DNA of 64,000 nucleotides, from IMG/VR virus record IMGVR_UViG_3300050581_000016, positions 12,299 through 76,298 of that record. One strand, written 5' to 3'. This stretch comes from a virus. Lineage: Duplodnaviria; Caudoviricetes. A program made the translations under genes and the position numbers. Below, one piece after another: positions 6,289 to 56,790 of the stretch. The notes under the pieces were generated by a model, which saw nothing but the letters and a program-made list of their open reading frames with translations, ran no database searches and was not told the DNA's origin. Positions within the stretch are counted from its first letter, which is position 1, and every line of letters begins with the position of its first letter.

Positions 6289-6464
6289 AACCCTTACTGA
6301 TGGCCGATTTGAGCGTCAGTGCATTAAGAATCTGATTGGGTGTCAATACACACAATCCCGCCTCGGTGCGCTCTAAACGCAAATTAGGGGCCTTCGTGGC
6401 GAAGGGCCGTTTTCGGCGTTTGGCACGGAACTTGCCCTGCCAAAAATCTTGGCATGAAAATTGT
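6289..6464 (+). promoter_or_regulatory. conserved regulatory module copy A, with tandem sigma54-like -24/-12 boxes
   Basis: TGGCACG-GAAC-TTGC (6421-6435) and TGGCATG-AAAA-TTGT (6450-6464); upstream block shared with 36719 and 56790. Confidence 0.7.
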
Positions 6465-6498
6465 TTGAAAATAAGTCATTACTTAGTGCATTTTTCTG

Positions 6499-6527
6499 TT
6501 GACAGATAAGTAATTACTTAGTATTCT
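6499..6527 (+). promoter_or_regulatory. sigma70-type promoter with palindrome in the spacer
   Basis: TTGACA-17 nt-TATTCT; spacer contains TAAGTAATTACTTA. Confidence 0.7.
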
Positions 6528-6571
6528 GTTGTTGACGGTTAGGGAACAAACCAACAACGACGGAGGCTACG

Positions 6572-7675
6572 ATGAAAGATGCGAACTTCTTTGGCAAGGT
6601 TGAGTGCAGGATTTGTGGAGCGAAGGCGCACTTCTTGGAGATGCACCTGACAGAAGTTCACGGCATGACCGCTGCCGACTACCTCAAGACCTACCCTGAC
6701 GCCAAGGTGCTCAGCGAGGCCGCCGAGCACAAGCTGTCCCAGATCGCCAGCGACACCAGGAACCAGAAAGTGGTCGTGAAGCTGAAAGACCTCTTTGGCG
6801 CGAACCCGTTTGGCAATCCCGATAGGGCGACCATCGAAGCCTTCAAGGCGCCCCGACCGAACACCCCGAAGACCGACCCCAACTACTACTTCAACCCCGA
6901 AATCCTGGCGGTTGTTTTGTACGCCATTCAGAACCAGAACATGAAGCTCCTGCTGGTAGGCCCGACCGGATCGGGCAAGACCAGCATCGCCGAACAGGTC
7001 GCGGCACGCCTCAACAGGGGCTTCTACAGGATCAACTTTGACGGCGACATTACGAGGGCCGACCTGGTCGGGCAATGGGTTCTGACCGTCAAGAACGAGA
7101 TGCACTTCCAGTACGGCATACTGCCGAAGGCCATGAGGGAAGGAGCCGTCCTGGTGCTTGACGAGTGGGATTGCGTGAACCCCTCGGTGGGCATGGTGCT
7201 GCAATCCATGATCGAGGGCAAGCCTCTGACCATCACCGAGACGGGCGAGGTCATTGAGCCGCACCCCGACTTTCGGCTGATCGCTACGGCGAACACGGTG
7301 GGACAGGGCGACGACACCGGCCTCTACAACGGGACTCAGCCCCAGAACTTTGCGACCCTCGACCGCTTTACGGTGGTTGAGCACGTTGACTATCCGACCC
7401 AGGCCAAGGAAAAGAAAATCCTGACCCAGACCACGGGCATCACAGACGACGACGTGCTGGACAAGCTGACCCGCACCGCGAAGCTGATCCGCGAAGCGTT
7501 TGTGAAGCAGGAAATCAGGGCGACCATGAGCACGCGGACGGTGGTGAACGCGGCCAGACTGATGCTTGATTGGGGTTCCCCGAAGCGGGCCTACACGTTG
7601 GGCTTCCTGAACAAGCTGACCACTGAGGATCAGAACGTGTGCCTGGAAGTCATCCAGCGAATCTGGGGCATCTAA
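6572..7675 (+). CDS. cobS: CobS-like MoxR/CbbQ AAA+ ATPase with N-terminal zinc finger
   Basis: GPTGSGKT, LVLDEWD, FRLIATANT, LDRF, MSTR; N-terminal CRIC...HLTEVH. Confidence 0.85.
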   Translation: MKDANFFGKVECRICGAKAHFLEMHLTEVHGMTAADYLKTYPDAKVLSEAAEHKLSQIASDTRNQKVVVKLKDLFGANPFGNPDRATIEAFKAPRPNTPKTDPNYYFNPEILAVVLYAIQNQNMKLLLVGPTGSGKTSIAEQVAARLNRGFYRINFDGDITRADLVGQWVLTVKNEMHFQYGILPKAMREGAVLVLDEWDCVNPSVGMVLQSMIEGKPLTITETGEVIEPHPDFRLIATANTVGQGDDTGLYNGTQPQNFATLDRFTVVEHVDYPTQAKEKKILTQTTGITDDDVLDKLTRTAKLIREAFVKQEIRATMSTRTVVNAARLMLDWGSPKRAYTLGFLNKLTTEDQNVCLEVIQRIWGI

Positions 7676-7723
7676 CCTGGACGGGCGGGCGAGATGCCCG
7701 CCCTTCTTTGTGGAGGGCAAGCG

Positions 7724-8263
7724 ATGGAATACCGGGACTACGAACCGTACATCACGAAAGCGGTCAGGAATCAACGGGCGAGAGTGTATGCCCAGACCGG
7801 CCTGGTCTTGGATGAGGCCGAGCTGCTGAGTGACTTCAACATGGACTTTCTGATGGCCTCAAAGAGCTGGCAGGAGGACGGGAGTGCGACCTTCACGACC
7901 TACCTGACACGGTGCATGTTGAACACGGTGTCGAGGCACCGGAGGTCGGCCATCGAGCGGCTGGCGTCAACGGCAGACGTTGACCTTGAGCTGCTGCCAG
8001 ACTCCCAGGCGCATCTTGAGCCGTTTGCCCTGGTTGCCGTGCGCGAGGCCGTTGACGTCATGGGCGGGCAGACCCGGAGAGTGCTTGAGTCTCTGGTTGC
8101 GCCTCCCAGCCTGAGCTGTCAGTTGAAGGGCGGCAACCGGAAGGATTGGGCGAAGTGGGAGGTCGAAGCGCTCACCGGCATGACCACTGACGCGGTCGGA
8201 TACCGCATCAAGAAGGCCAAAAAAAAGTTGAGAAACTCATTGAATTTTGCTTGCAATCAGTAA
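7724..8263 (+). CDS. phage sigma70/ECF-like sigma factor
   Basis: region-2-like FTTYLTRCMLN and a C-terminal HTH (EVEALTGMTTDAVGYRIKKAKKKL). Confidence 0.65.
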   Translation: MEYRDYEPYITKAVRNQRARVYAQTGLVLDEAELLSDFNMDFLMASKSWQEDGSATFTTYLTRCMLNTVSRHRRSAIERLASTADVDLELLPDSQAHLEPFALVAVREAVDVMGGQTRRVLESLVAPPSLSCQLKGGNRKDWAKWEVEALTGMTTDAVGYRIKKAKKKLRNSLNFACNQ

Positions 8264-8279
8264 GTGCTTATTGTATTCT
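8251..8279 (+). promoter_or_regulatory. sigma70-type promoter with operator
   Basis: TTGCAA-TCAG-TAAGTGCTTA-TTG-TATTCT, 17 nt spacer. Confidence 0.75.
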
Positions 8280-8325
8280 GAAATTGTAAGACGGCGGAAA
8301 CAAACCTAAAACGACGGAGGCTACG

Positions 8326-8880
8326 ATGGAAGCATTGAACCTGAACACGATGGCTGAGCTTGAGAGGGACATCGAGGCGACCCTGGCCGCGAAGATCGAG
8401 GCGGGCCGAGGATGCTTTGGAACGATACTCTTTAACGCCAATGACGACGTGACGTGCGGGGCCTGTGACCTGTTTGCGGCTTGCGAAGAGGCCCATGCCG
8501 CGAACCGGATGACGGTGCTCAAGAGCGCCGAGGCCGAGCTTGAGGCCGAAGAGGCGAAGCTGGCGGCGGTCAGCGAACCCGCACCTGAGCCGGTGGTCGA
8601 GCCGGTTGCCCAGGAGCTGGTTGACATTGACGTGAACGCCCTGAGCGGCAAGAGCCGCAAGAAGCAGTTTGATTGGGACAAGGCCATCAACGGCATCCTT
8701 GCCGCGAAGCCGACCCTTTTCAAGGAGGCCGCCGCGATTTGCAAGGACGCCCTGCTCCCTGAGTGGGCCTGGGCCGACGCTACGGCCTACGGCAACTGCA
8801 ACAAGATTCTGGGCGGGCTGGCGAAGGCTGGTGCCGTGAACTGGGCACCGAAGGGCAAGACCATCGAGTGGCTGAGATAG
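8326..8880 (+). CDS. hypothetical protein (Cys cluster, C-terminal winged-helix-like region)
   Basis: GGAGG SD; C...CGAC..FAAC. Confidence 0.7.
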   Translation: MEALNLNTMAELERDIEATLAAKIEAGRGCFGTILFNANDDVTCGACDLFAACEEAHAANRMTVLKSAEAELEAEEAKLAAVSEPAPEPVVEPVAQELVDIDVNALSGKSRKKQFDWDKAINGILAAKPTLFKEAAAICKDALLPEWAWADATAYGNCNKILGGLAKAGAVNWAPKGKTIEWLR

Positions 8881-8893
8881 TCAGGAGCCTGAC

Positions 8894-9232
8894 ATGACCG
8901 CGACATTTTACAAGAACTTTGCGATCAAGTGGGGAACGAACTGCACGAAGTGCGGGAGGCGCCTCGATGAAGGCGCCTCTGCCTGGGGATACAAGGACGG
9001 AGCGCTTGGGAAGTGGCGCTTCATCTGTGGCCACTGTTACTGGACGGAGACTATGACGTTCCCCGATCAGCCGGGGGAGGTTGAGGAGAAGGTCAGCGAG
9101 GAGTTTCTGAGCATGCTCCCAGACAGCGACCCCGTTGGTGTCAAACCCGAACCGCCCGCGAGCGTTAATATGGTCAAGGAAAAGCCCTTGCTTGAGCGCC
9201 TCAAGGACGAGGCGCCCTGGCGCCTGGCATAG
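8894..9232 (+). CDS. hypothetical zinc-binding protein
   Basis: CTKC...CGHC; ends LLERLKDEAPWRLA. Confidence 0.7.
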   Translation: MTATFYKNFAIKWGTNCTKCGRRLDEGASAWGYKDGALGKWRFICGHCYWTETMTFPDQPGEVEEKVSEEFLSMLPDSDPVGVKPEPPASVNMVKEKPLLERLKDEAPWRLA

Positions 9233-9240
9233 GAGGTCAA

Positions 9241-9594
9241 ATGCCAAGATGGAATCTTCAGTGGAAGGTTGACAGCAGCTCAAGCCCTGGCAAGACCTAC
9301 ACGGTGTCGGAGGCTTTTGACGGGACATGGGCCTGTTCGTGCCCTGCCTGGACGCGCATGCGGAAAGAGTGCAAACACATCAAGCTGGTCAAGATGCGGC
9401 TTGCGACGGGAATCACCGACAAGGCCATAGTTCTGATAACGGAGAACGGCCATCCGGCCGCGCCTGACGTCATTGGCGCGGCCATCAATGAGGCCATAAT
9501 GAACAGAGAAGCCGAGAAGGTCGAGGAGCCCCCGAGGCAACTGAGCCTTCTTGAGCGGCTGGCGATTGAGGCTCCCTGGAGGATGAAACGATGA
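9241..9594 (+). CDS. SWIM zinc-finger protein
   Basis: YTV...WACSCPAW...CKHI SWIM pattern; ends LLERLAIEAPWRMKR. Confidence 0.75.
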   Translation: MPRWNLQWKVDSSSSPGKTYTVSEAFDGTWACSCPAWTRMRKECKHIKLVKMRLATGITDKAIVLITENGHPAAPDVIGAAINEAIMNREAEKVEEPPRQLSLLERLAIEAPWRMKR

Positions 9595-12500
9595 TCCATC
9601 TTCACGCCCATTCTCACTACAGCGTGCTTGACGGCCTGGGAACCGTTGACGAGATCATCGAGCGGTGCAAAGCCATCAAGGCGCCTGCCGTGGCGATCAC
9701 CGACCACGGAAGTATCAGCGTCCTGCCCGACCTGTTCAAGAAGGCCAAGGCGGCGGGCGTCAAGCCGATCATCGGGTGCGAGTTCTACCTGACCGACAAG
9801 GCCGAGGGAGAGAAGGCCGAGCGCCGCTATCACCTGACGGTGCTGGCCAAGACCTGGGCGGGCACCCAGAGCATCATCAAGGCCCTGACCCTGGCCAACA
9901 CCCAGTTCTACTACCGACCGCGACTCACCATCGAGCAGGCCCTGACGGCCTTCAGCGAGTGCGTGGTGATGAGCGCCTGCACCAGCGGCATCTTGATTAG
10001 GGACGACTACGCCGACCTCTACGACCGATTCAAGGCGGCCTACGGCGAGGACTTCTACCTTGAGGTGATGCCGCACGCCTTCCTTGACGAGGGCGCCAAC
10101 CATCAGGCCATCGTGAACACGAGGGCGCTGGGCCTCTGGCAGCACAAGAAGGCGAAGGTGGTCGCAACCAACGACGCGCACTACGTCAACCCGGACGACG
10201 CCTACCCTCACGAAGTCCTGCTGGCCATCCAGAGCGGCAAGACCTGGGACGACCCGAAGCGCTGGAGGTTCAACTGCGACGGCCTGCACATGAGGGACGT
10301 CGAGGAAATGGTGGCGGCCTTCGGGAAGAACTGCCCGTATCTGCCCCTTGACTTCGTGAAGGCGGCCATGCTGACAACCCTTGAGGTTGCCCAGAAGTGC
10401 AACGTCGAGCTGCCCGCCTTCCCGATCCACCTTCCCAAGGTGTCGGCAGAGGACGACAACAAGATGTTCGCAAAGCTCCTGGCCGATGGCTGGGAGGCGA
10501 AGCTGGCGCCGCACGGCGAGGAGCTTGACCTCGACGTTTACCGGAAGCGCCTGGTCTACGAGATCGGCGTCATCAACAAGCTCAAGTTCACGAGGTACTT
10601 CCTGATCGTCCAAGACATCATCCGGTGGGCGCGCGAGCAGGGAATAGCGGTCGGGCCTGGGCGCGGGTCGGCTGCCGGATCGCTGGTCTGCTACTTGCTC
10701 GACATCACCCAGCTCGACCCGATTGTCCACAAGCTCTACTTTGAGCGGTTCTTGAACCCTGAGCGTCTGGACTACCCGGACATCGACGTGGACTTTGGCG
10801 ACGACAGGCGGCAGGAGGTCTTTGACTACATCAGGGGCAAGTACGGGCACGACAAGACGGCTAACATCAACACCTTCGGGGTGCTGACCGTCAAGAGCGC
10901 CTTCAGGGATGTCGCCAGGGTGTTCGGCGTGAATATCCTGACCGTCAACGCCCTGAGCAAGCTGATCGACGACGAGGTATCCTTTGAGAAGGTTCCAGAG
11001 CTTGGGCGATTCGCCAAGTCAGAGGTCGGCGCCAAGGTTGTTGACCTCTCAAAGAAGCTCAGCGGGCGCATCCGACAGAACGGGGTGCATGCCGCTGGGA
11101 TCGTGTTGAGCGACCGGCCCCTCACCGAGGTCGCCGTGATCGAGCACCGCAAGGACGCTGACGTTATCAACTGGGACATGAAGAACTGCGAGGTCTTTGG
11201 CCTCATCAAGATCGACGTGCTGGGCCTGAGCACCTTGAGCATCATGGACATGGCGGCCAAGCTGGTGAAGCGTGACCTTGGCGAGGACATCGACTTCGTG
11301 GGCATCCCGCTGGACGACGAAAAGGCGATGGACGCCTTCTCCAAGGGAGACACGCTGGGCGTGTTCCAGTTTGAAGGAAACGGCCTCCAGGGGCTGCTGA
11401 AGGGCCTTCAAGCCCACGATTTCGAGGCCATAACGGCTGCGACCGCCCTGTTCCGGCCTGGGCCTTTGAATGCGGGCCTGTGCGAGCAGTACCTCCGCAT
11501 CTCCAAGGGCGATGAGCGGGAGTGGTATGACCACGAGCTGCTCAAGCCGATCCTGAGCGACACCAAGGGCGTCGTGGTCTACCAGGAGCAGGTCATGCGA
11601 ATCTTTGTTGACCTGGCGGGATTTACCTACCCCGAAGCAGACAAGATGAGGAAGATCATAGGCAAGAAGCTGGGCAAGGACGAGTTCGAGAAGCACCGGG
11701 ATCACTTCGTCAAGGGCGCCGAGGCCAAGGGCATCGACCCACGGCTGGCAGACGGCATCTTCACGAAGCTGGTCGAGTTTGCCGGATACGGCTTCAATCG
11801 CTGTATAGCGCATGACGAGAAGCTGTTCAGGTTGAGTCGATGCGACAGTAAGAGCGAGCCGCTAAGCATAGGAGAGATGTATCGCATAAAGAACAATTTG
11901 GCATATGCCAAGGCAACAGGGCATGAGGCGCTTCGTAAGAAGTATATGAGGCTTGGGTACGGTTATGCTCTTTCAATGAATGACGAGGGGCGTCTGGTCA
12001 AAAACAAGATCGTTGACATTTATCCATCTGGAGTGATGCCGGTCTATCGCTTGACCACTGAAGGAGGCGTGACGTTTAAATGTACCATGAATCATTCGAT
12101 TCCAACGACAGACGGCAAGAAGCTGCTTTCAGATATAGTTCCTGGTGACGCAGTATATGTGTCTAGTGGATACGAACATGTGAGATTCAATGAGTGCTTC
12201 TACAATAAAGACGAAACGCCTCTAGTCAACTCCGAGCTTGGCAAAATGGGCTTTCAAGAGCGAATGCTTGGTAATTCTGTACTTTATAATACGATAAGAG
12301 AGCAAAAGATTGCTTTGCTGGGGCAATGCGAGGAGTGCGGTGGCGCCCCATCCAGGTTTGAACTGCATCATGTTGGGCTTGACAGGTCGAAGAATGGTTA
12401 TGACGATCTGCGACTGTTGTGTCCGTCCTGTCATAAGATAAAGCACTATGAGGCTGGACGTACCAAGGCTTTTGAGAAGGGCTATCCAACAGTGACCGAC

Positions 12501-13655
12501 ACGGTGGCTGTCGTCGAGTATGTCGGTGAGGAAGAGTGTTTTGATGTGGAAATGACGGCGCCAAACCACAACTTTCTTACCGGAGGCGGGCTTGTGGTCT
12601 GCAACTCCCACGCATGTGCCTACTCCATGATAAGCCTCTGGACTCAATACCTCAAGACCCACTATCCGCTTCAGTTTATGGCGGGCAGCATGACATACAC
12701 CGACAAGAAAGAGCGCCTGCGACTTCTGGTCAGGGAGTGCGGGCGCCTGGGCATCGAGGTTAAACAGCCCGACATAAACAGGTCAACCAACGTCTTTGAA
12801 GTGGATGTGGCCGAGAATGCCATCACGGCGCCACTGAACCTGATAAAGGGCGTCGGCGGCGCGGCGGTAAAGGCGATTCTCAAGGCCCGCGAGGAACGGT
12901 GCTTCATCAGCATGGACGATTTCAGCGACCGGATCAACAAGCGGGCCTGTCATAAGGGCATCGTGGAAACTCTGACCAAGGCCGGGGCCTTCGAGAGCTT
13001 GGGCATCGGCGAGCGTGACCCAGAGCAGCGCATCAAGAACTTCGCCGAACTCATGCCGATCTTCAGCCTGCTTCCCAGCCTGACTCTGGGCGGCAGGATG
13101 ATGAAGGAAGAGATCGAGGCGATTCAGGGCCTGGTGATAGAGATGGACGAATGCAGGGCGGCAAACCTCCCGAAGCGCAACCTGATCCCACCGGCATTCA
13201 ACAGTAAGGGACAGATCATGGTGGTCAACAACCCTGTGAAGCACGAAACCAAGCACTTCCAGAGCGACGGCAGCAAGCACTTTCTCAAGACCATGAGGGG
13301 CCTGGGCTTCACCGAGGGAAACTTCTATTACACCTCCCCGATCAAGTGCAAGCACCTCAACTACGGCAAGGCCGACGCGGCCTGCCAGGATCGCTGCCTG
13401 GAGTTCCTGAAGCGCGAGATCGAGCTGGTCAAGCCCAAGCTCATTATCTGCTTTGCGAGCAGCATGACCGGCTTCTTCACGGGAGACCCCAAGGCCCAGG
13501 CGAGCACGCTTCGAGGTCAGGCCGTCTACAACAAGACCCTGGACACCTACATCGTCTTCAGCCCGTCACCCCAGTACGCCTACTATCAGGAGGGCGGTCA
13601 GGCGGCCTTCAAGGAGTCAATGGAGCTGGTCAGAAATATTTTTGCTGACAGCTAA
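9591..13655 (+). CDS. dnaE: DNA polymerase III alpha subunit (family C) with intein and C-terminal UDG-like domain
   Basis: PHP domain HLHAHSHYS/TDHG, GRGSAAGS, PDIDVD, GVHAAG, GYGFN...SHA. Confidence 0.95.
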   Translation: MIHLHAHSHYSVLDGLGTVDEIIERCKAIKAPAVAITDHGSISVLPDLFKKAKAAGVKPIIGCEFYLTDKAEGEKAERRYHLTVLAKTWAGTQSIIKALTLANTQFYYRPRLTIEQALTAFSECVVMSACTSGILIRDDYADLYDRFKAAYGEDFYLEVMPHAFLDEGANHQAIVNTRALGLWQHKKAKVVATNDAHYVNPDDAYPHEVLLAIQSGKTWDDPKRWRFNCDGLHMRDVEEMVAAFGKNCPYLPLDFVKAAMLTTLEVAQKCNVELPAFPIHLPKVSAEDDNKMFAKLLADGWEAKLAPHGEELDLDVYRKRLVYEIGVINKLKFTRYFLIVQDIIRWAREQGIAVGPGRGSAAGSLVCYLLDITQLDPIVHKLYFERFLNPERLDYPDIDVDFGDDRRQEVFDYIRGKYGHDKTANINTFGVLTVKSAFRDVARVFGVNILTVNALSKLIDDEVSFEKVPELGRFAKSEVGAKVVDLSKKLSGRIRQNGVHAAGIVLSDRPLTEVAVIEHRKDADVINWDMKNCEVFGLIKIDVLGLSTLSIMDMAAKLVKRDLGEDIDFVGIPLDDEKAMDAFSKGDTLGVFQFEGNGLQGLLKGLQAHDFEAITAATALFRPGPLNAGLCEQYLRISKGDEREWYDHELLKPILSDTKGVVVYQEQVMRIFVDLAGFTYPEADKMRKIIGKKLGKDEFEKHRDHFVKGAEAKGIDPRLADGIFTKLVEFAGYGFNRCIAHDEKLFRLSRCDSKSEPLSIGEMYRIKNNLAYAKATGHEALRKKYMRLGYGYALSMNDEGRLVKNKIVDIYPSGVMPVYRLTTEGGVTFKCTMNHSIPTTDGKKLLSDIVPGDAVYVSSGYEHVRFNECFYNKDETPLVNSELGKMGFQERMLGNSVLYNTIREQKIALLGQCEECGGAPSRFELHHVGLDRSKNGYDDLRLLCPSCHKIKHYEAGRTKAFEKGYPTVTDTVAVVEYVGEEECFDVEMTAPNHNFLTGGGLVVCNSHACAYSMISLWTQYLKTHYPLQFMAGSMTYTDKKERLRLLVRECGRLGIEVKQPDINRSTNVFEVDVAENAITAPLNLIKGVGGAAVKAILKAREERCFISMDDFSDRINKRACHKGIVETLTKAGAFESLGIGERDPEQRIKNFAELMPIFSLLPSLTLGGRMMKEEIEAIQGLVIEMDECRAANLPKRNLIPPAFNSKGQIMVVNNPVKHETKHFQSDGSKHFLKTMRGLGFTEGNFYYTSPIKCKHLNYGKADAACQDRCLEFLKREIELVKPKLIICFASSMTGFFTGDPKAQASTLRGQAVYNKTLDTYIVFSPSPQYAYYQEGGQAAFKESMELVRNIFADS
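11802..12605 (+). mobile_element. intein with HNH endonuclease (268 aa)
   Basis: Inserted in GYGFNR|SHA; starts CIAHD, ends FDVEMTAPNHNF...VVCN|S; CEEC..ELHH..N..LLCPSCH; lower GC. Confidence 0.9.
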
Positions 13656-13662
13656 TTTTTCC

Positions 13663-13691
13663 TTGCAATCAGTAAGCGCTTAGTATATTCT
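13663..13691 (+). promoter_or_regulatory. sigma70-type promoter with operator
   Basis: TTGCAA-TCAG-TAAGCGCTTA-GTA-TATTCT. Confidence 0.75.
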
Positions 13692-13750
13692 GGAGTTAAC
13701 GGTTAGGGGCACAAGGCGCAACGAACAACCAACTACGAAAAGGAACGACG

Positions 13751-17848: not shown

Positions 17849-17850
17849 CC

Positions 17851-29925: not shown

Positions 29926-29982
29926 CACGAAGGCGCCCTTCGGGGCGCCCTTCCTGTTTCATGGCGATGGGTCAAATAGTTC

Positions 29983-30011
29983 TTGCATTCAGTAAGTGCT
30001 TAGTATATGCT
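29983..30011 (+). promoter_or_regulatory. sigma70-type promoter with operator
   Basis: TTGCAT-TCAG-TAAGTGCTTA-GTA-TATGCT. Confidence 0.7.
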
Positions 30012-30053
30012 GGAACCAAGTGCTAAGGAAAAACGCCAACGACGGAGGTTGAC

Positions 30054-36669: not shown

Positions 36670-36718
36670 AGAATACAACGATTCTTAAATGCAAGCCTTT
36701 TGCGGCAGAGCGCCTGTG

Positions 36719-36876
36719 AACCCTTACTGATGGCCGATTTGAGCGTCAGCGCATTCAGATTCCGTTTAGGTGTCAGTACATAGGGGGCAACTTCAAGTGC
36801 GCTCTAAACGGCAAATAGGCCGCCCAGAAGCGGGGTGAAAGTCTGGCACGATTCTTGGCTCGGCACGAGGCTTGCA
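36719..36876 (+). promoter_or_regulatory. conserved regulatory module copy B, with tandem sigma54-like boxes
   Basis: 31 nt identical to copy A; TGGCACG-ATTC-TTGG (36844) and CGGCACG-AGGC-TTGCA (36861). Confidence 0.7.
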
Positions 36877-36923
36877 AAGGTTCTAAGTGTCTAAAATATT
36901 TTGCAATCCCCTTCACTTTTTGT

Positions 36924-36952
36924 TTGACAAAGAAGTAAGTCCTTAGTATTCT
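36924..36952 (+). promoter_or_regulatory. sigma70-type promoter with operator
   Basis: TTGACA-17 nt containing TAAGTCCTTA-TATTCT. Confidence 0.7.
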
Positions 36953-37004
36953 GGGTGCAACGGTTAAGGAACAACACCAACCCCAGATACGAAGGAGCAC
37001 GACC

Positions 37005-37583
37005 ATGACTTACGGCGAATACGCAAAGGCCCAGGCGAAATTGGCGAAGATCAACCACGACCTCGATGAGATGTGGGAGAACGCCGAAACTGAAGAAGCC
37101 CGCAAAGAGTGCATGGTGCTTGAGAAAGAGGCCGAGGAACTCCAGGCCATAGTCGCCGAGGGCGCCGAGCAGTACAAGGCGACCGAGGACAACGACGAGG
37201 ACATGGAAGACGACGAACTGCTCAAGACCATCGAGAAGATCATGGGCGGCAGCACCGCGAGCACGATGGTTGAGAAGGAAGTGGCCCTCGCCGACAGTGC
37301 GACGGCCAAGGCCCTGAAAGAGGGCGCGACGGTAGTTGCCGACGAACCGGCCAAGAAGGACGAAGAGGCCGTCAAGAAGGCCCGCAAGCCCAGGGAGAAG
37401 AAGGAGCCCGAACCGGAAGTCACTGAGCTTGGAGGATTCAAGCTGGGCCAGAAGGCGGGCTGGAAGGAAGGCGGGCAACTCTTTGAAGGGATCGTTACAA
37501 AGATCGGCAAGTGCTACCTGGGGATCACCATCGAGAGTGGAAAACACCAGAAGATCAAGCCCTGCTACACGATAGCCCTGTAA
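37005..37583 (+). CDS. hypothetical acidic protein with C-terminal SH3-like beta domain
   Basis: GGAG SD; KLGQKAGW...FEGIVTKIGK. Confidence 0.7.
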   Translation: MTYGEYAKAQAKLAKINHDLDEMWENAETEEARKECMVLEKEAEELQAIVAEGAEQYKATEDNDEDMEDDELLKTIEKIMGGSTASTMVEKEVALADSATAKALKEGATVVADEPAKKDEEAVKKARKPREKKEPEPEVTELGGFKLGQKAGWKEGGQLFEGIVTKIGKCYLGITIESGKHQKIKPCYTIAL

Positions 37584-48461: not shown

Positions 48462-48462
48462 C

Positions 48463-49383: not shown

Positions 49384-49397
49384 GGCAAGGAGGGGTG

Positions 49398-49730: not shown

Positions 49731-50161
49731 TGGAGATCAAACTTGATTTCGGGCCTGGGATAGCGGCCATGACCAAGAAGATCGGCGCCATAGGCACCAA
49801 GACCTATGCGGCGGCGGCAAAGATCATCGACGACGTGACCGACAACCTGCAAGCCGAAACGATCAAGCGCGTCCCCATTGACAAGGGCCTTCTCCAGCAG
49901 TCCATCGACAAGACTGTCGAACACAACACTTTTGCGAGCGAGATCACTGGGCACGTTTTCGTTCCGGCCAATGCACCGGCCAAGGACTATGCGCTCTACA
50001 TGCACGAGCTGGAGTATAACCTGGGGGCCGCATCGCTTCAGAAGCAGGCGGGGCAGCCCGAGAAGGTCGGTCGCAAGTACATGGAGCGGGCCTTTGAAGA
50101 GAATAAGCGGGCCTACGAACTCTACATCGTGAGCGAGCTAAGGAGGGCAATCGGTGTTTAG
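49727..50161 (+). CDS. HK97 gp10-like tail completion protein
   Basis: VPIDKGLLQQSI, YALYMHE, KYMERA. Confidence 0.75.
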   Translation: MMEIKLDFGPGIAAMTKKIGAIGTKTYAAAAKIIDDVTDNLQAETIKRVPIDKGLLQQSIDKTVEHNTFASEITGHVFVPANAPAKDYALYMHELEYNLGAASLQKQAGQPEKVGRKYMERAFEENKRAYELYIVSELRRAIGV

Positions 50162-50534
50162 CACAGTTCTGACAACCGTCCTGGCCGATGCCGGTCTTGG
50201 CCTCGTCAAGGGGCAGAACCTATTCAGCGAGCAGGCGAGCGTCGCCCAGTGCGTCCTGGTCAAGACCACGAGGGTCGAAGACATCGACCAGGCCATCCCG
50301 GACATTCAGAGGGCCGTCGTACAGGTCTTGGTCAAGGGATACGCCATCGAGGAGGGGTTCGCTTTGGCAGACAACGCCGTGAAGGCCCTTGAGTCCCTTT
50401 CTGGCGCGTTCTCTGATGGGGCGGCACAATACGGCATAAAGTCGGTCATCGTGCGAAATAGGCCCGTTTTCGTGGCCTACGGCGGCGAGAAAGCCTACTC
50501 CGCAAACCTGGAGTTCTTCTACTCCATCGCATAG
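50154..50534 (+). CDS. tail terminator protein
   Basis: VQVLVKG..; position before the tail tube genes. Confidence 0.65.
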   Translation: MFSTVLTTVLADAGLGLVKGQNLFSEQASVAQCVLVKTTRVEDIDQAIPDIQRAVVQVLVKGYAIEEGFALADNAVKALESLSGAFSDGAAQYGIKSVIVRNRPVFVAYGGEKAYSANLEFFYSIA

Positions 50535-50639
50535 CGGCAACAAACCATAGACCGCCCTGGCGGCATCTACTTCACCGCATCCAGCAATGGATTGCGGGTT
50601 TTGTTTTCACAATCAATCCAACGAAAGGAGCAACACAGC

Positions 50640-51140
50640 ATGGCAGGTGTGGCGCAAGACGTGAAAATGGGCGTTTGTACGGTTGAGTTTGATACCGCTG
50701 ATCTGGGATATACCAGCGGCGGGGTCAAGATCAGCTACAAGGCCGAAACCAAAGAGAAGACGGTCGATCAGGAGGATGCGCCGGTTGACGTCATCGTGAT
50801 CGGACAGTCAATTGAAGTGACCGTTCCATTGGCCGAGCAGAATCTCTCCAGGCTGGCCGACCTCCTCCCCGGCGCGACGTACACGCTCGATGCGACCAAG
50901 AAGAAGATGGTCTTGAGCGGCGCGGCAGGATCGAGCCTTCTGACCCTGGCAAAAGAGCTGGTCGTGAAGCCCGTTGGCGGGACGGCGAACGATTGGGTCA
51001 CGATCCACCATGCGGTTCCCCAGCCGTCGATGGAGTTCAGCTACGACAAGGACAAGCAGCGCATCTACGAGGTCGTGTTCAAGGGCGTCAAGGGCACGAA
51101 CGGTTTTGTAACCTTCGGCGACGAAACGGCAGCGCCCTAA
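50640..51140 (+). CDS. major tail (tube) protein 1
   Basis: LGYTSGGV, IEVTVPLAE, FSYDKDKQRIYEVVF. Confidence 0.75.
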   Translation: MAGVAQDVKMGVCTVEFDTADLGYTSGGVKISYKAETKEKTVDQEDAPVDVIVIGQSIEVTVPLAEQNLSRLADLLPGATYTLDATKKKMVLSGAAGSSLLTLAKELVVKPVGGTANDWVTIHHAVPQPSMEFSYDKDKQRIYEVVFKGVKGTNGFVTFGDETAAP

Positions 51141-51172
51141 GCCGTGACGCGGCTCAATGAAAGGAGCTGAAC

Positions 51173-51676
51173 ATGGCAGGCGTAGCAGCAGACGTGAAGA
51201 TGGGCGTCTGCACTGTCAGTTTCGGCGGTGTAGACCTCGGTTATACCAGCGGCGGCGTCAAGGTAAGCTACAGGGCTGAAACCAAAGACGTCGTCGTTGA
51301 CCAAGAAGACATTCCTCTCGACGTCATAGTGACAGGTCAGTCAATCGAGGTCACGATCCCTCTGGCCGAGCAGAATCTGGAGCGGCTCGGCGGCCTGCTT
51401 CCTGGAGCGACCTTTACGCAAGATGTGGCCAAACAGAAGCTGGTCTTGAGCGGCACGGCTGGCACCCGTCTTTACCCGCTCGGCAAGAAGCTGGTCATCA
51501 CCCCAGTTGGTCTTACGAGCGCCAATGAAAAACTCACGATCTACAAGGCAGTTCCGCAACCTCAAATCGAGTTCAGCTACGACAAGGACAAGCAGCGCAT
51601 CTACGAGGTCGTCTTCAAGGGCGTCAAGAGTCCAAATGGGTTCGTGACATTCGGTGACGAAACGGCTGGCACTTAG
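51173..51676 (+). CDS. major tail (tube) protein 2, tandem paralog
   Basis: Roughly two-thirds identical to 50640..51140 by eye. Confidence 0.75.
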   Translation: MAGVAADVKMGVCTVSFGGVDLGYTSGGVKVSYRAETKDVVVDQEDIPLDVIVTGQSIEVTIPLAEQNLERLGGLLPGATFTQDVAKQKLVLSGTAGTRLYPLGKKLVITPVGLTSANEKLTIYKAVPQPQIEFSYDKDKQRIYEVVFKGVKSPNGFVTFGDETAGT

Positions 51677-51768
51677 CCGACGAACGGCTGACAATCAGCC
51701 GGGGCATGGTTTTTATCTGGCCGCCTTCGGGCGGCCATTTCAATTCATCTTTAGCAGGAGCGTTTAGT

Positions 51769-52080
51769 ATGAAAGTCATCAACCTCGACAAATTCGCAAC
51801 TTTTCAGAAGGTTTCCTTGGGCGGCGTCGAATACTCCGTGCAGGGCAAGCCGGTGGAAGACTTCCTCACCGACACCGTGGCCAAGAAGCTCGAAGAGGCC
51901 AAGAGCAACCGGGATAAGGTCGAAGTGCTCGTGTCCGAGGTCGAACGCATCAGTGACATCCCTCGTGAAGTGCTGGTCAAGCAGACCTTCGGCGTTCTGA
52001 ATGCCATTCTGATGGTTGCCCAGGGCGTTGATCCCGAAGCGAAAGAAGCGTCGGAGGGCGAAGGCTCAAAAAACGACTGA
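51769..52080 (+). CDS. tail assembly chaperone (gpG-like)
   Basis: Between tail tube and tape measure genes; slippery A AAA AAC at 52068-52074. Confidence 0.8.
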   Translation: MKVINLDKFATFQKVSLGGVEYSVQGKPVEDFLTDTVAKKLEEAKSNRDKVEVLVSEVERISDIPREVLVKQTFGVLNAILMVAQGVDPEAKEASEGEGSKND

Positions 52081-52391
52081 TCCTGAGCTATGACATGGGG
52101 TACGTCATGTGCTCAGTCATGCGCTTCTACGGCATCACGCATGCTGACCTCCTGCGGCTCCCGATATACACGTTCTGGGAGATGGCCAAGAACATTGATC
52201 GGCTCAGGGCCGAAGATGACAAAAGGATGTTCATTCTCTTGCAGCAGGCTTTCATGTCGGAAAACGCCCAGAAGTACCTGGACGGGCTGCATGAGGAACA
52301 GGGAACCGTCATTGAAACCAGCGACGGCTATTATGGCGAAAAGTTTGACCAAGGGGCGTTCAATGCGCTTCGAGGGCTACTTGGAGGCTAA
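52068..52391 (+). CDS. tail assembly chaperone -1 frameshift extension (gpT-like)
   Basis: The -1 frame is open from the heptamer through ORF 52095..52391. Confidence 0.75.
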   Translation, partial: KKRLILSYDMGYVMCSVMRFYGITHADLLRLPIYTFWEMAKNIDRLRAEDDKRMFILLQQAFMSENAQKYLDGLHEEQGTVIETSDGYYGEKFDQGAFNALRGLLGG

Positions 52392-52437
52392 CGGGCCATC
52401 TGTGCCGCACTAAAGCGGCCCCATATTGGAGCACGCA

Positions 52438-55400
52438 ATGAATCTTGGGACTTTATCAGCATCGGTTACGCTTGCGACCGGCGGCTTCAAGGCTGGCGTC
52501 CGCGAGGTCACAGGCGGCTTGGCAAGCATCGGGCGCTCTGCCTTCATGCTCAATCAGAGTCTTGAGCTGGTGCAGCGGCTGACGGGCGGCCTGGTCGGGA
52601 AAATCGGCGAACTGGGCAAGAACATGGTCGAGACTGCGGCTGAGTTCGACATGCTCAAGCTCTCCCTGGAAACTCTGACCAAGGGGCATGGCCAGGAGTG
52701 GTTCGACAAGTTGAACGAGTGGGCCATCAAAATGCCTATGAACACCCAGGGCGCCATCAAAGCCTTCCAGCAGATGAAGGCGATGGGGATGGACCCGACC
52801 ATCGACACCATGACGACTCTGTCCGACACGGTTTCGGCCCTGGGCGGCAACAAGGATACCTTGGAGGGGATCGCCCGTGCACTGGGTCAGATGTCCACCA
52901 AGGGTAAAGTCCAACTCCAGGAAATGTATCAGCTCGCTGAGCGCGGCGTGCCGGTCTTTGAGCTTTTGGCCAAGTACACGAACCTGACCAAAGAGCAGAT
53001 TGCAGATATCGGCAAGTACGGTGGCGAGGCAAAGACGGTCATCGAGGCCATCATGTATGGCCTCAACCAGATGTACGGCGGCCAGAGCGCAAAGATTCAA
53101 TACAAGTACACCGGATTGAAGGAAGGCTTTATCGGCTACTGGTCTGAGTTTCAGCGGCAGATCATGGACTCAGGCCCCATGAAGCTCCTCGAAGAGAAGA
53201 TGCTCGGCGTCATGCAAAAGATCGACAGGGCCTTCGCAAGTGGAGACTTCAGCAGGTATGCCCGCGAGATTGGAAACACGGTCGAGGACATCATCAACTG
53301 GCTCTACGACATGGGCGAGTCCGCCTGGCAAAACCGCGACAAGGTGAGCAAGTTTTTCAGCGAGATCGCGGAAACGGCGCGGAACGCCTGGCCGGTCATC
53401 AAAGACGTGGCCAGCGCCATCGGCTCCGTTGTGGAGGCGGCTGGAAAGCTCATCACTGCGGTTCCAGGCGGCGGCACCGTCGCAACCTACGGCCTGATCG
53501 GAGCCTACCTGTTCGGCGGTCAGGCGGGCCTAGTCATTGCCGCGATCACGGCGGCTGGCATCCTGATTGACAAGGCCGACAAGGCCACTCAAAGCTCCCT
53601 TCAGAACATGAAGGACAAGCAAGACACCGACTACGGCAAGTTCATGATCGACAAGGTCGGGGTCATGCAAGATGAGCTTTGGGCAAGCACCAGCTTTGAC
53701 AGCGCTGGCATCTATGCCGACATGAGCAAGGCCGTTGACGAGTGGAAAACCAAGAACAAATCGGCGCTCAAGGAGGCGCGGGCCGACTACGACCAGTGGT
53801 ATCAGGATTTGAACGGCAAGGACGCCTGGTACAAGACCATGCTCATAAGCTGGATCGACGGCGTTGAACAGATGGGGCAGAGTATTAAGGACGGCACTAG
53901 CCTCATGGTTCAGTCCTTTGATGAGGCTTTGAGCAGTGGCGAGTCTTTGGGATCGGAGCTGCCTCAAAGTTTTGCGGCGGCGGTTGATAGCCTGGGAGAG
54001 GCAAGCTCAAGCTCAGAGGAAATGACCGACAGCATCGACAAGATGATAAGCCTGGTTAGCGAGGATAAGAGCCTTTATCAAATGGGCCAAGACGCAATGC
54101 AGGCTGGCTCAGAGTTTGAAACGGTTGACAACAACGCCAAGGGCGCAACCAGCACGCTTGAGACTCTTACTTCAAAGGTTCTTGGCCTCGCCAATGTGAT
54201 GGCCGAGAGCGGCAGCGCTTTCATGGCCTACGCCCAGGGCCTTGCAATGGTCGAAAGAGCCGACCCGCTGGCTGGCGTTGACACCAGGTGGATGAAAGAG
54301 GATGTTGACCCCAAGCGCTTCACGATCTCAAGCGTAGGCCGCAAGGGCAGAGGCGGCGGGGGCGGAGGGAGCAAGTCCGACCCGTCTGAGTCGGCCCTGA
54401 CCAGCATCATCAACAAGTTGATCGAGGCCAAGGCAAAGCTCGAAGAGATCGGCCTGAGCGAGTTCGATGCTGGCCTCAAGAAGATCATTGCCGACTATGA
54501 CCAGTTGATCGAGAAGAACAAGAAGTTCTTTGATTCACAGCCCGAGATGCAGGGAAAGATCGACGAGCTGCGGAGGATTCAAGAAGAGGCACTGGCCAAG
54601 AAGATGCTCTTCGAGGCCAATCAGAACCTGGACGACTCCCTGAATGAGGCCAAGTTCAATGCGGCAGTGGCGGGCATGTCCGAGTATCAGGCCGCGCTGG
54701 CCCAGGTCAACTTCGAGTATGAGAAGCTGGTGCAGTCAAACGAGCGCCTTCTTGGCTCCAAGATGGACGAGGGCATTCGGGCGAAGATTACTGCCATTCG
54801 GGATACCAACCTGGCGGCCCAGCAAGCGGCGCTGGCAAAGAGCATCGAAGACGCCATCAATGAGCAGCAGTTCCAGAACAGCATCCTGGGAATGACCGAC
54901 CTTGAGCGGATCACCGCTGAAACCACCTGGCAGTTCGAGAAGATGGGCGCCAACATCGCCGGAGTGGCCGACAAGATCGCGGAGCTGAACAAGCTCAGAT
55001 TGGACGGTTTCAACCGGCAGATTTTGGACAGCATTGCCAAGATTAGCGACCTCAAGATGGCTTTCCATGAGGCCACTCAAGCAATGGCAGGCGAGCTGGC
55101 CAACGCCCTGGTCGATTGGATGTCCACCGGCAAGTTCGACTTCAAAAAGCTGGCGGCAGCCCTTATCAAGCAGCTCCAGATGGTTGCGGCTCAGAAGACC
55201 GCATCTCTTTTGATGGAGGCGGCCTATCAGGGCGTCATGATCCTGGCCGACTACAACAACGCCGCGATTCACGCCGAGGCGGCGATGGCGGCCCTGAAGG
55301 GCGCTGCGATCATGGGCAGCTTCGTTGTGGGGTCTGGATTGGCCGGTATGGCTCATTCAGGCATCACGGACATCCCGGATCAAGGCACCTGGCTCCTGGA

Positions 55401-55629
55401 CAAGGGTGAGCGGGTCGTTGACAGCAAGACCAATCAAGACCTGAAGCAGTACATCACCGAGAACAAGGGAAAGCCCAACGTGAACATGACGGTCAACATC
55501 AACGGCGGCGACGAGCAGAGCGTCATGAAGTCGTTGCCTGCCCTGAAGGATGCCGTCCTTCAGATTGTCAATTCCGATATCAGTTCAAACGGGCAAACCC
55601 GTCAAAGCATCTTGAGCTACACCCGATAA
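52438..55629 (+). CDS. tape measure protein
   Basis: 1063 aa, helical; tape-measure N-terminal motif ALGQMSTKGKVQLQEMYQLAERGVPV; C-terminal LLDKGERVV. Confidence 0.9.
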   Translation: MNLGTLSASVTLATGGFKAGVREVTGGLASIGRSAFMLNQSLELVQRLTGGLVGKIGELGKNMVETAAEFDMLKLSLETLTKGHGQEWFDKLNEWAIKMPMNTQGAIKAFQQMKAMGMDPTIDTMTTLSDTVSALGGNKDTLEGIARALGQMSTKGKVQLQEMYQLAERGVPVFELLAKYTNLTKEQIADIGKYGGEAKTVIEAIMYGLNQMYGGQSAKIQYKYTGLKEGFIGYWSEFQRQIMDSGPMKLLEEKMLGVMQKIDRAFASGDFSRYAREIGNTVEDIINWLYDMGESAWQNRDKVSKFFSEIAETARNAWPVIKDVASAIGSVVEAAGKLITAVPGGGTVATYGLIGAYLFGGQAGLVIAAITAAGILIDKADKATQSSLQNMKDKQDTDYGKFMIDKVGVMQDELWASTSFDSAGIYADMSKAVDEWKTKNKSALKEARADYDQWYQDLNGKDAWYKTMLISWIDGVEQMGQSIKDGTSLMVQSFDEALSSGESLGSELPQSFAAAVDSLGEASSSSEEMTDSIDKMISLVSEDKSLYQMGQDAMQAGSEFETVDNNAKGATSTLETLTSKVLGLANVMAESGSAFMAYAQGLAMVERADPLAGVDTRWMKEDVDPKRFTISSVGRKGRGGGGGGSKSDPSESALTSIINKLIEAKAKLEEIGLSEFDAGLKKIIADYDQLIEKNKKFFDSQPEMQGKIDELRRIQEEALAKKMLFEANQNLDDSLNEAKFNAAVAGMSEYQAALAQVNFEYEKLVQSNERLLGSKMDEGIRAKITAIRDTNLAAQQAALAKSIEDAINEQQFQNSILGMTDLERITAETTWQFEKMGANIAGVADKIAELNKLRLDGFNRQILDSIAKISDLKMAFHEATQAMAGELANALVDWMSTGKFDFKKLAAALIKQLQMVAAQKTASLLMEAAYQGVMILADYNNAAIHAEAAMAALKGAAIMGSFVVGSGLAGMAHSGITDIPDQGTWLLDKGERVVDSKTNQDLKQYITENKGKPNVNMTVNINGGDEQSVMKSLPALKDAVLQIVNSDISSNGQTRQSILSYTR

Positions 55630-55675
55630 CATGGGAGACCCAGGTTCACCACTTGGGCCTCCATTGGAGGGTATC

Positions 55676-56014
55676 ATGGAAGACACCTTTCCTTTGGTTC
55701 CAGACCGACTCACCCAGACCACCCCGGAGTTCAGCACCAATATTGTCACATTTGAAAACCACAAAGAACAGCGGTCGGCGAGGATTTCAACGCCGTTTAT
55801 CACGTTCAAGATCGTGTTCACCTACCTGACGCCTGCGCGGCTGCAAACACTCAGAACATTCTTCGATGAGCACATGGGGTCGCTCTACCAGTTCTATTTC
55901 GTCAATCACATTGACGGCCAGACCTATACGGTCAGATTCAAAAACGACAAATTCCCCGTAACTCATACGAACGTGGCCTGGCACAACCTTGAATTGGAGC
56001 TTGTGACATGCTGA
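55676..56014 (+). CDS. distal tail protein (lambda gpM-like)
   Basis: TNIVTFEN..EQR, FFDEHMG...F.F, YTVRF. Confidence 0.7.
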   Translation: MEDTFPLVPDRLTQTTPEFSTNIVTFENHKEQRSARISTPFITFKIVFTYLTPARLQTLRTFFDEHMGSLYQFYFVNHIDGQTYTVRFKNDKFPVTHTNVAWHNLELELVTC

Positions 56015-56604
56015 GCCTTAATGCCCAAACACTAATCGCAACAAACAGCGAAGAGGTTCAGACTCTGTTCCTCTATGAGTTCACTTATGACGACGCCAAC
56101 GATCCTTTGCGCTGGACGAGTTGGGACGTTGAAGTGTCATTTGAGGGGCATGTCTTTACGCCCGAAGTGGTCAAGCATTCAGACATCACCCAAAGCTCTG
56201 ACGGCAAGATCAACGAATGCTCGCTGACTGTCGGAAACGCGAATCGAATGATCCAATACTACATCGAAAACTATGATGTCATCGGGCGTCAAGTTCGCAT
56301 CATTCAGTTCTTCGTAGGCCAGACAGGCTACGTCGAAACGACGTATGTCATCAAGGGGGCAAAAGCCAAGGGCGACGTCGCCACCTTCGGCCTGAGCATC
56401 GGGATAGACTTTCTCAGGCTACAGGTGCCTGGGCGCATTATGAGGAGCCGAATGTGCGGATGGAAGTTTGGCGACTCACAATGCGGCAAGACCCCAGGGC
56501 CTGAAGAGCAATGCGAGAGAACCCTGGAGGCGTGCAGGGCCAAGAACAACGTGGCCCGATTCGGAGGCTTTCCAGGCATTATCAACGAGCGTTTCTACTT
56601 CTAG
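56008..56604 (+). CDS. tail tip protein (lambda gpL-like)
   Basis: C.WKF...CG...C..TL.AC....N..RFGGFPG Fe-S motif. Confidence 0.8.
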   Translation: MLSLNAQTLIATNSEEVQTLFLYEFTYDDANDPLRWTSWDVEVSFEGHVFTPEVVKHSDITQSSDGKINECSLTVGNANRMIQYYIENYDVIGRQVRIIQFFVGQTGYVETTYVIKGAKAKGDVATFGLSIGIDFLRLQVPGRIMRSRMCGWKFGDSQCGKTPGPEEQCERTLEACRAKNNVARFGGFPGIINERFYF

Positions 56605-56790
56605 CAACTCCTGTGCCAAGAAAATTCATAGGGCAAGTTCCGTGCCAAGACGCTAAGCGCTTACTTCGTGCGATTTCCTGCTGATGGGGCCTCATTTGCG
56701 TTCTGACGGCAGCGACCCGTGCCGCCTTGTACTGACACCTAATCAGATTTTTAATGCGTTGACGCTCAAATCCGCCATCAGTGCGGATTT
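56604..56790 (-). promoter_or_regulatory. conserved regulatory module copy C (antisense), with tandem sigma54-like boxes and operator
   Basis: On the minus strand: ACTGATGGCGGATTTGAGCGTCA ... TAAGCGCTTA ... TGGCACG-GAAC-TTGC ... TGGCACA-GGAG-TTGC. Confidence 0.7.

Follow-up and report, generated by a model that had tools for sequence, protein, structure and literature searches.

Sigma-54 promoters of bacteria are enhancer-dependent, and examples are glnAp2 with its NtrC sites and Pu with its XylR sites and IHF. Phage morons of the lambda type and the promoter–stem-loop cassettes of T4 (PeSL) are small, independently transcribed units that lie between genes adjacent in relatives. Promoter reuse and putative mobile promoters are known in prokaryotes (PMC3575422). 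Pseudomonas aeruginosa phage YuA is described as depending on host sigma-54 (Ceyssens et al. 2008, cited in PMC5053324), and a sigma-54-like start site, P015, has been mapped in it (bioRxiv 10.1101/2023.10.13.562163). With YuA as precedent, the use of sigma-54 by a phage is rare but already known, and is not a new principle.

Here we describe a temperate tailed phage with three copies (A, B and C) of a control cassette of ~210–245 bases, each of which ends in sigma-54-type promoters. We think it probable (at about 0.62) that these promoters are genuine, RpoN-dependent and fired by an activator of the host, and that the portable cassette carrying them was duplicated within the phage lineage. 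Coordinates are positions in the window, which is the whole 64,000-nucleotide stretch of DNA that was analysed.

Cassette copies and their insertion sites

The three copies were proposed in an earlier note on this DNA, and all were found where it had placed them. They were also recovered independently by a repeat search, as matches between A and B (D14, 71 nt, 85%), A and C (I1, 137 nt, 71%) and B and C (I2, 70 nt, 83%), and between the box regions of A and C (I3, 50 nt, 74%). Each copy has a conserved 55-nt core, followed ~120–165 nt on by two −24/−12-like boxes. The 31-nt block reported as identical between A and B is confirmed (AACCCTTACTGATGGCCGATTTGAGCGTCAG).

Copy A as a whole unit (6259..6469, + strand) lies between the cobT terminator and the sigma-70-type promoter of the cobS-like operon, with its core, ACTGATGGCCGAT...GGTGTCAATACA, at 6296..6350 (+). 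An intrinsic terminator (6181–6205) precedes it. Copy B (36670..36885, +, insertion bounds approximate; core 36726..36780, +) is upstream of the sigma-70-type promoter of the packaging/structural operon. Copy C (56605..56847, −; core 56728..56782, −) is a reversed insertion of 243 nt that separates two tail genes: on one side it is flanked by the stop codon of tail L (56602–56604), on the other by the native ribosome-binding site of the NlpC/P60 gene, whose ATG is at 56861. All three copies are at gene or operon boundaries; A and B are intergenic and face operons, and C is intergenic and antisense, with no gene downstream. The cassette itself contains neither gene nor terminator and only directs a promoter outward.

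Copy A is common to the phage and its closest relative (contig L006). That relative lacks B and C, which are lineage-specific insertions of the cassette. At the position of B the relative (L201) has a 126-nt gap with no cassette, and at the position of C tail L is directly followed by NlpC/P60 in L202, L203 and L204; this junction is compact in all relatives examined. The earlier note had overlooked that B and C are insertions.

Copies A and B are, as claimed, directly upstream of sigma-70-type promoters, each with a palindrome in its spacer. After A, TTGACA-17-TATTCT (6499..6527, +), with the palindrome AAGTAATTACTT in its spacer, drives an operon whose first gene is the cobS-like one at 6572; a second palindrome-like site (~6476–6490) lies upstream of this promoter. 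After B, TTGACA-17-TATTCT (36924..36952, +) precedes the gene at 37005, and this promoter is ancestral at its place, since L201 also has it. In copy C an operator-like palindrome, TAAGCGCTTA (56654..56663, −), lies 6 nt upstream of box C1 and matches the palindrome of the early sigma-70-type promoters. The phage encodes an XRE-type HTH gene and has its own palindrome regulon. That the sigma-54 boxes offer a route that bypasses repression, as had been suggested, is speculation, because a sigma-54 transcript must cross both operator-like palindromes and could be blocked there too.

Candidate sigma-54 boxes and the upstream core

All six boxes listed in the earlier note were located, but the critical GG-N10-GC is present in only four of them (A1, B2, C1 and C2). 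Box A1 (TGGCACGGAACTTGC; 6421..6435, +), with a predicted start at ~6447, is an exact −24/−12 consensus, and in box A2 (TGGCATGAAAATTGT; 6450..6464, +) GT replaces GC at −12. In box B1 (TGGCACGATTCTTGG; 36844..36858, +) GG replaces GC at −12; A2 and B1, with the −12 GC missing, therefore fall short of a sigma-54 box at that element. Box B2 (CGGCACGAGGCTTGC; 36861..36875, +) retains GG-N10-GC and has one mismatch, outside GG/GC, so that copy B keeps one such box despite its different box arrangement. Both boxes of copy C are exact consensus: C1 (TGGCACGGAACTTGC; 56633..56647, −), which with its flanks equals A1 over 19 nt, and C2 (TGGCACAGGAGTTGC; 56604..56618, −), which ends on the G of TAG, the stop codon of tail L (TAA in the relative). 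The predicted C2 transcript is antisense to tail L. The boxes within a copy are 29 nt apart, but 17 nt in copy B.

Four cassette boxes are among the five best-scoring sites of the 76-kb contig. The whole contig was scanned with a crude weighted consensus score, and 60 Markov simulations served as background. The highest scores go to C1, A1, C2 and B2 and to one intragenic site, at 2234(−), which ranks ahead of B2; such top-scoring sites number 5 against 0.38 expected, and the simulation maximum is 2. Exact matches to TGGCAC-N5-TTGC number four in the window, three of them in cassettes (A1, C1 and C2).

The sole close relative is represented by three contigs from one metagenome, so the conservation test is one pairwise comparison. 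Four-fold degenerate sites compared between phage and relative gave the neutral reference (365/613 = 0.60 identical). In this one pair the boxes of copy A are identical at 35 of 38 positions (P = 8e-6 against the neutral 0.60), with 19 of 20 identical in box A1 and its flanks in L006 and 16 of 18 in box A2. The right part of the core is identical at 21 of 24 positions (P = 0.003) and the core middle at 10 of 18, and the spacers, the inter-box segment and the pre-core are 0.45–0.62 identical. The boxes are thus conserved and much of the upstream block is not. The earlier note had set down the opposite pattern, a kept upstream block with decayed boxes, as speaking against its proposal, so for the boxes this outcome favours it. 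Among the paralogs A, B and C the core is 0.79–1.00 identical and the spacer 0.33–0.50. Enrichment in the contig, islands of conservation in the ortholog and retention beside saturated paralog spacers together support reading the boxes as selected sigma-54 promoter elements.

The 'imperfect dyad' is not supported as the activator site: its arms are only 4 bp (CTGA...TCAG and TTGA-GCG-TCAA) without real symmetry, and between the orthologs the region is identical at 10 of 18 positions, the neutral level. It is better described as part of the 55-nt core, which has two direct 10-mers, yGTCArynCA, 27 nt apart (starting at 6314 and 6341 in copy A). This motif was drawn from the same copies and so is descriptive, not a test. 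A bEBP enhancer has at least two dyad sites ~80–150 nt upstream, and the core departs from it in symmetry and fits it in distance. The core lies ~95–150 nt upstream of the predicted starts, and this is the usual enhancer distance. The IHF-like AATCAG-N4-TTA is indeed present in copies A (6325–6337, reverse strand) and C (56741–56753, +), where it matches the IHF consensus (WATCARNNNNTTR) perfectly, but it is absent from copy B and from the ortholog of A. It also lies inside the core, not between enhancer and promoter, and a role as an IHF site is not supported.

Other readings of the cassette were rejected. No ribosome-binding site precedes the tiny forward ORF in the core (MADLSVSALRI), which is cut to 8 aa in the relative. 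The reverse frame of the core lacks a start codon in B and is interrupted upstream; its divergence between orthologs is largely non-synonymous, with 13 of 21 codons encoding different amino acids. In copy C this frame coincides with that of NlpC/P60, but relatives place the start of that gene at 56861. As to a structured RNA, RNAalifold gives a consensus of −6.3 kcal/mol on one strand and −3.0 kcal/mol on the other, with no conserved structure on either, and an Rfam search of the cassette returned nothing below E = 0.4. A hairpin with a T-run (56385–56362, −) was rejected as a terminator for the antisense RNA of copy C, one such site being expected by chance. This hairpin is better formed than its counterpart in the relative.

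Searches elsewhere with the exact core pattern gave zero matches in IMG/VR, seven chance matches in JGI metagenomes and the chance level in GTDB genomes. A 25-nt core match in a Gammaproteobacteria MAG (L102/L113) spans a gene junction with dissimilar surroundings and is not relied on. In IMG/VR the 18-nt box sequence matches two ~113-kb phages that are unrelated, within an ORF for a small membrane protein, and we therefore attribute these matches to chance.

Activator, host and competing explanations

The earlier note saw no GAFTGA-bearing activator in the window, and we find none in any frame of the 76 kb, about two-thirds of the genome. The lone Sigma54_activat match in the 76 kb is a marginal cross-match of the MoxR/CobS-like ATPase. 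The cobS-like gene was rejected as the activator: its product is a MoxR-type AAA_5 ATPase that has an invariant C2H2 finger and no GAFTGA, and the gene is equally present in relatives without the cassette. A chromosome contig that was binned in a Geobacter MAG holds a more distantly related prophage, whose helicase–integrase operon is preceded, at a distance of 215 nt, by a perfect box, TGGCACGTCCTTTGCT. The same contig bears a bEBP gene, and Sigma54_activat matches in the MAG number 27. The strong match on this contig was rejected as a phage-encoded bEBP, for it is host DNA beyond the prophage integrase.

A host enhancer copied by the cassette was not found in Geobacterales or GTDB representative genomes. 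The pattern of right core plus box gave one match in 201 Geobacterales genomes versus two for the control, the pattern being strict and the group possibly not that of the host; core plus box, also a strict pattern, gave chance matches only in GTDB representative genomes. Relatives of TerL and CobS, as a route to the host, led to MAG bins only.

In the explanation that we favour, the 55-nt core would bind a regulator, most likely a host enhancer-binding ATPase, and one or two −24/−12 sites would recruit host RpoN-RNA polymerase, firing out of the cassette. The cassette would have entered the cobT–cobS spacer in the common ancestor of the phage and its closest relative, with later copying within the lineage to a place before the packaging/structural operon (B) and, reversed, to one between tail L and K (C). 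Copies A and B would each add a signal-gated promoter to a palindrome-bearing sigma-70-type promoter of the phage, and C may give an antisense transcript or transcriptional interference over the 3′ part of tail L. Building on the repeats, the motif enrichment, the selective conservation of boxes and right core, and the insertions of B and C, we infer that RpoN binds, that an activator is needed and what that activator is, together with any physiological signal. Because C fires antisense into the tail operon, it is a poor fit to a simple circuit for switching on the phage programme. We are doubtful of a more far-reaching reading, in which a self-copying cassette provides a single host-signal input that, when one host activator is on, boosts replication (A) and packaging (B), with the antisense RNA of C tuning the tail genes, as a distributed RpoN-gated layer above repressor control.

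The likeness to −24/−12 elements would be incidental if a phage-encoded protein binds the cassette, the functional parts then being the core and TTGGCA-type hexamers (weak sigma-70 −35 elements or operator half-sites). The core is near-identical in the paralogs and its middle differs in the ortholog, as when operator and repressor co-evolve; the phage has its palindrome regulon and XRE-type HTH gene, with a palindrome adjoining box C1; and copy A permits a weak sigma-70 reading, TTGGCA-16-AAAAAT. That reading is missing in B and poor in C, however, and conservation goes beyond TTGGCA to take in all of TGGCACGG–ACTTGCCC, with the GG-N10-GC spacing kept exactly. With four full or near-full consensus sites in three short segments, unlikely by accident, we consider binding by a phage protein an unlikely account of the cassette.

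In E. coli, sigma-54 is documented to bind at many sites without productive transcription (PMC4591121), and this supports a reading in which RpoN-RNA polymerase occupies the boxes but activation there is rare or never happens, so that closed complexes or a core-bound protein act as insulators or roadblocks in either orientation. Such roadblocks would separate transcription units, A following the cobT operon, B preceding the late operon and C dividing the proximal from the distal tail genes, in keeping with the boundary positions of all three copies. A roadblock tolerates the reversal of one copy, for which a promoter has no obvious need; tandem boxes would raise occupancy, and the missing activator in the 76 kb would be no obstacle. 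Yet copy A is already preceded by the intrinsic terminator at 6181–6205, the conserved upstream core would have no role, and we know of no demonstration that closed complexes stop an elongating polymerase, all of which makes insulation improbable. We judge it similarly improbable that the copies are neutral or selfish duplications, B and C being without adaptive function and derived by illegitimate recombination of promoter DNA (a gene-less moron) or from a decayed mobile element. The absence of B and C from the closest relative would suit such an origin, as would the way in which C, without a downstream gene, breaks a junction compact in all relatives examined. Against it, a search for MITE-like signs at the junctions of C found neither terminal inverted repeats nor a target-site duplication, and C bears the two best boxes of all. 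Moreover, the spacers are saturated (0.33–0.50) and the core and boxes kept, so the copies are old enough to have decayed if neutral.

Comparison with known systems

Should the boxes prove to be genuine RpoN promoters, an ATP-dependent host activator, and hence a host physiological signal, would gate part of the phage programme. Experimental support for sigma-54 gating exists in very few phages. The cassette would also be a dated example of an enhancer–promoter unit copied to new places in one small genome, and its antisense copy within the tail operon a concrete case for the study of regulatory rewiring in phages.

The cassette resembles bacterial sigma-54 promoters in the exact spacing of its −24 GG and −12 GC and in a conserved element ~100–150 nt upstream, and those assisted by IHF in the IHF-consensus match of two of its three copies. 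It differs from the glnAp2 and Pu type in being without clear dyad sites, in its tandem boxes 17 or 29 nt apart, and in being repeated as a unit. Like YuA, this phage is a siphovirus without a phage-encoded sigma-54 that would use host RpoN (here predicted) for part of its programme. The case for YuA is experimental, whereas ours comes from sequence alone, and we know of no repeated cassette or antisense copy in YuA. The two phages are unrelated, as blastn of ours against deposited phages gave no match. As with morons and the T4 PeSL, the cassette is inserted between genes adjacent in relatives, but it has no gene or terminator of its own. It shares with putative mobile promoters a promoter-bearing segment found at several places, independent of the downstream gene and rewiring regulation; here, in contrast, an enhancer and a sigma-54 core are combined within one phage genome, and the order of the copies can be read from the relative.

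Phage genome and cassette anatomy

The source contig (76,298 bp, IMG/VR completeness rating 67%, G+C 57%) comes from a temperate, siphovirus-like phage with no DNA-level match among deposited phages. The window covers contig bases 12299-76298, and positions are those of the window unless marked contig. The lysogeny genes are an integrase (contig 7414-8610, minus) and an XRE-type HTH gene (3398-3841, minus). Replication genes encode a CobT/VWA protein (4097-6172), a CobS-like ATPase of the AAA_5 type (6572-7675) whose N-terminal C2H2 finger is invariant, DnaB, primase, a DNA polymerase III alpha containing an intein, SbcC and ribonucleotide reductase. The genes for packaging and structure occupy 37005 onward, including the small terminase (39117), large terminase (39724), tape measure (52426), tail L (56008-56604), the NlpC/P60 tail protein that follows it and a J-like protein (57259-61950). 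The phage 'CobS' is a MoxR/AAA_5 ATPase whose partner is the CobT/VWA protein; its finger (C-x2-C...H-x4-H) is invariant over 20 homologs and has a weak Ros/MucR match. Adjoining the integrase, AATCCGGCCTTCGGCACCA (contig 7300-7345, outside the window) resembles a tRNA-Leu 3' end, which suggests that the contig is the free (excised) phage form.

The three cassette copies described in the earlier note are all present where it placed them; the whole units span 6259-6469 (A, +), approximately 36670-36885 (B, +) and 56605-56847 (C, minus). Every copy has a 55-nt core (6296-6350, +; 36726-36780, +; and 56782-56728, minus, respectively), then a variable spacer, then two TGGCACG-N4-TTGC-like boxes. 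The note had counted six sigma-54 boxes; GG-N10-GC is intact in four of them, but A2 has GT and B1 has GG at -12. Three of the four exact TGGCAC-N5-TTGC sites in the window fall inside cassette copies. A crude consensus score, with weights of our own that approximate the published consensus, was computed over the entire contig; its five highest values fell at C1, A1, C2, an antisense site within a gene at 2234, and B2. These five high-scoring sites compare with 0.38 expected and a maximum of two in any simulation.

The fourth exact consensus, TGGCACAGGTATTGCA (2220-2234, minus), is antisense within coding sequence at the junction of ORFs 1847-2275 and 2229-2438, with no core element upstream; it could be due to chance or be an intragenic RpoN site.

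Conservation and insertion history

One close relative was found in the database, as three separate contigs from Logan run SRR26809232: L006 (CobS 81% identical in amino acids to that of the window phage), L201 (TerL, 86%) and L202 (tail L, 82%). L006 carries the cassette between cobT and cobS, and the distance between ATGGCC and box 1 is unchanged at 121 nt. As a neutral benchmark we took four-fold degenerate sites of five shared genes (365/613 identical, 0.60). Between A and L006, box 1 is identical at 19/20 and box 2 at 16/18 positions (jointly 35/38, P = 8e-6 against 0.60), and the right core part (AAGAATC.G.TT.GGTGTCAATACA) at 21/24 (P = 0.003). The spacer (40/67), inter-box segment (5/11) and pre-core (50/80) are at the neutral level. 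The middle core part, proposed earlier as a dyad activator site, is identical at 10/18, likewise at the neutral level. The earlier note had counted loss of the boxes with retention of the upstream block against its promoter reading; for the boxes, L006 shows the opposite.

Among the three paralogs, identity is 0.79-1.00 in the core and 0.33-0.50 in the spacer, so the copies have existed long enough for DNA free of constraint to randomise; selection or local gene conversion has preserved the core and boxes.

Judged by comparison with relatives, B and C are insertions. Just 126 nt lie ahead of the 37005 ortholog in L201; they contain a sigma-70-type promoter TTGACG-N-AAGTAAGTCCTTAGTATTCT as in the window phage and no cassette. 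In L202 and in the further relatives L203 and L204, the gene for tail L either abuts or overlaps that for NlpC/P60, and junction alignment delimits copy C as a 243-nt insertion (56605-56847), flanked by the stop codon of tail L on one side and by the native TGGGGCG...ATG of NlpC/P60 on the other, without target-site duplication or terminal inverted repeats. This alignment places the true NlpC/P60 start at 56861, not 56684; the mechanical ORF (56684-57262) is 59 codons too long, the insert being a multiple of three and in frame. In more distant relatives (L007-L009, CobS 58% identical) the cobT-cobS spacer is 126 nt and the cassette is absent. In the segment that follows the core, C is similar to the copy in L006 (TCGCTGCCGTC.GAA) and a derived form, GTGCGCTCTAAA, is common to A and B, which suggests that C was copied first and B later from A. 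The cassette was not found in the other collections searched (IMG/VR, JGI metagenomes, GTDB representative genomes and deposited phages).

Activator and host context

The predicted starts are some 95-150 nt downstream of the core, which thus occupies the usual position of an enhancer. In its make-up, however, the core departs from the textbook form. It has no convincing dyad and instead holds a direct 10-mer twice, the two being 27 nt apart, a motif derived from these same cassette sequences, and the IHF-consensus match reported earlier is present in A and C but limited to them. The absence of a GAFTGA-bearing activator, noted before for the window, extends to the whole 76-kb contig, about two-thirds of the phage genome. 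A weak hit to the activator domain profile Sigma54_activat is a CobS/MoxR-type ATPase also present in cassette-less relatives, and was discounted. This leaves a host activator as the likeliest partner of the cassette, as far as the available two-thirds of the phage genome show.

One more distant relative, with a CobS 53% identical, is a prophage that opens a 114.5-kb chromosome contig in a Geobacter MAG bin; protein matches to the window phage are confined to the first ~10.7 kb, and an integrase and a tRNA-Pro gene come next. The same contig encodes a bona fide enhancer-binding sigma-54 activator (27 Sigma54_activat matches in the whole MAG), and the helicase-integrase operon of the prophage has a perfect sigma-54 box, TGGCACGTCCTTTGCT, 215 nt ahead of it. 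Thus at least one relative of the phage group has an activator-bearing host and a sigma-54 box of its own. Pattern scans lent no support to a host enhancer as the source of the cassette: neither 201 Geobacterales genomes nor the GTDB representative genomes showed enrichment for a strict pattern of right core part plus box.

The host part of the Geobacter contig has a sigma-54 box, TGGCACACATATTGCA (L093, G001:C102:39451-39465, minus), about 55 nt before a signal-peptide protein gene, with a tandem repeat, CGGAATACTTTACAG x2, about 60-100 nt upstream of it; together these look like a complete host enhancer promoter. Separately, a perfect 25-nt match to the core's left half, ATGGCCGATTTGAGCGTCAG.GCATT, occurs in Gammaproteobacteria MAG A5-S03_163 on two contigs (L102:4100-4135 and L113:2805-2840), 3' of a rhomboid-like gene and in surroundings otherwise dissimilar to the cassette (chance probability roughly 1e-3 among 13 distinct hits).

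Early promoters, copy C and known systems

About nine sigma-70-type promoters share TTG(A/C)(C/A)A, AGTAAG..CTTAGTAT(A)TTCT and then a conserved leader, ACGGTTAGGGAAC (4064-4104, 6489-6549, 8245-8285, 13657-13697, 29977-30017, 36914-36974 and contig 6755, minus, are of this type). Their spacers contain a palindrome, TAAG-N2-CTTA; they probably make up an operator regulon controlled by the XRE-type HTH protein, and the same promoter type is retained in the 58%-identity relatives (L007). The suggestion that A and B bypass repression is not obviously workable: transcripts from A1/A2 or B2 would still need to cross both palindromes. In copy C, TAAGCGCTTA, the palindrome found in the spacers of these early promoters, lies 6 nt upstream of box C1. 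The boxes of C face the 3' end of tail L in antisense direction and have no gene ahead of them, and their output could be antisense RNA or transcriptional interference; a possible terminator follows at 56385-56362 (minus), one such site being expected by chance.

The cassettes are most likely genuine RpoN promoters reused within one phage lineage, the simplest fit to the box enrichment, conservation and insertion data. Host sigma-54 use by phages is rare yet established: development of phage YuA depends on host sigma-54, as stated in PMC5053324 after Ceyssens et al. 2008, and mapping in YuA has revealed a start site of sigma-54-like type (bioRxiv 10.1101/2023.10.13.562163). Promoter reuse apart from a promoter's own genes has been described in bacteria (PMC3575422). 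The distinctive feature of this case is the history of the cassette: an ancestral copy was followed by two insertions, of which one lies antisense within the tail operon.
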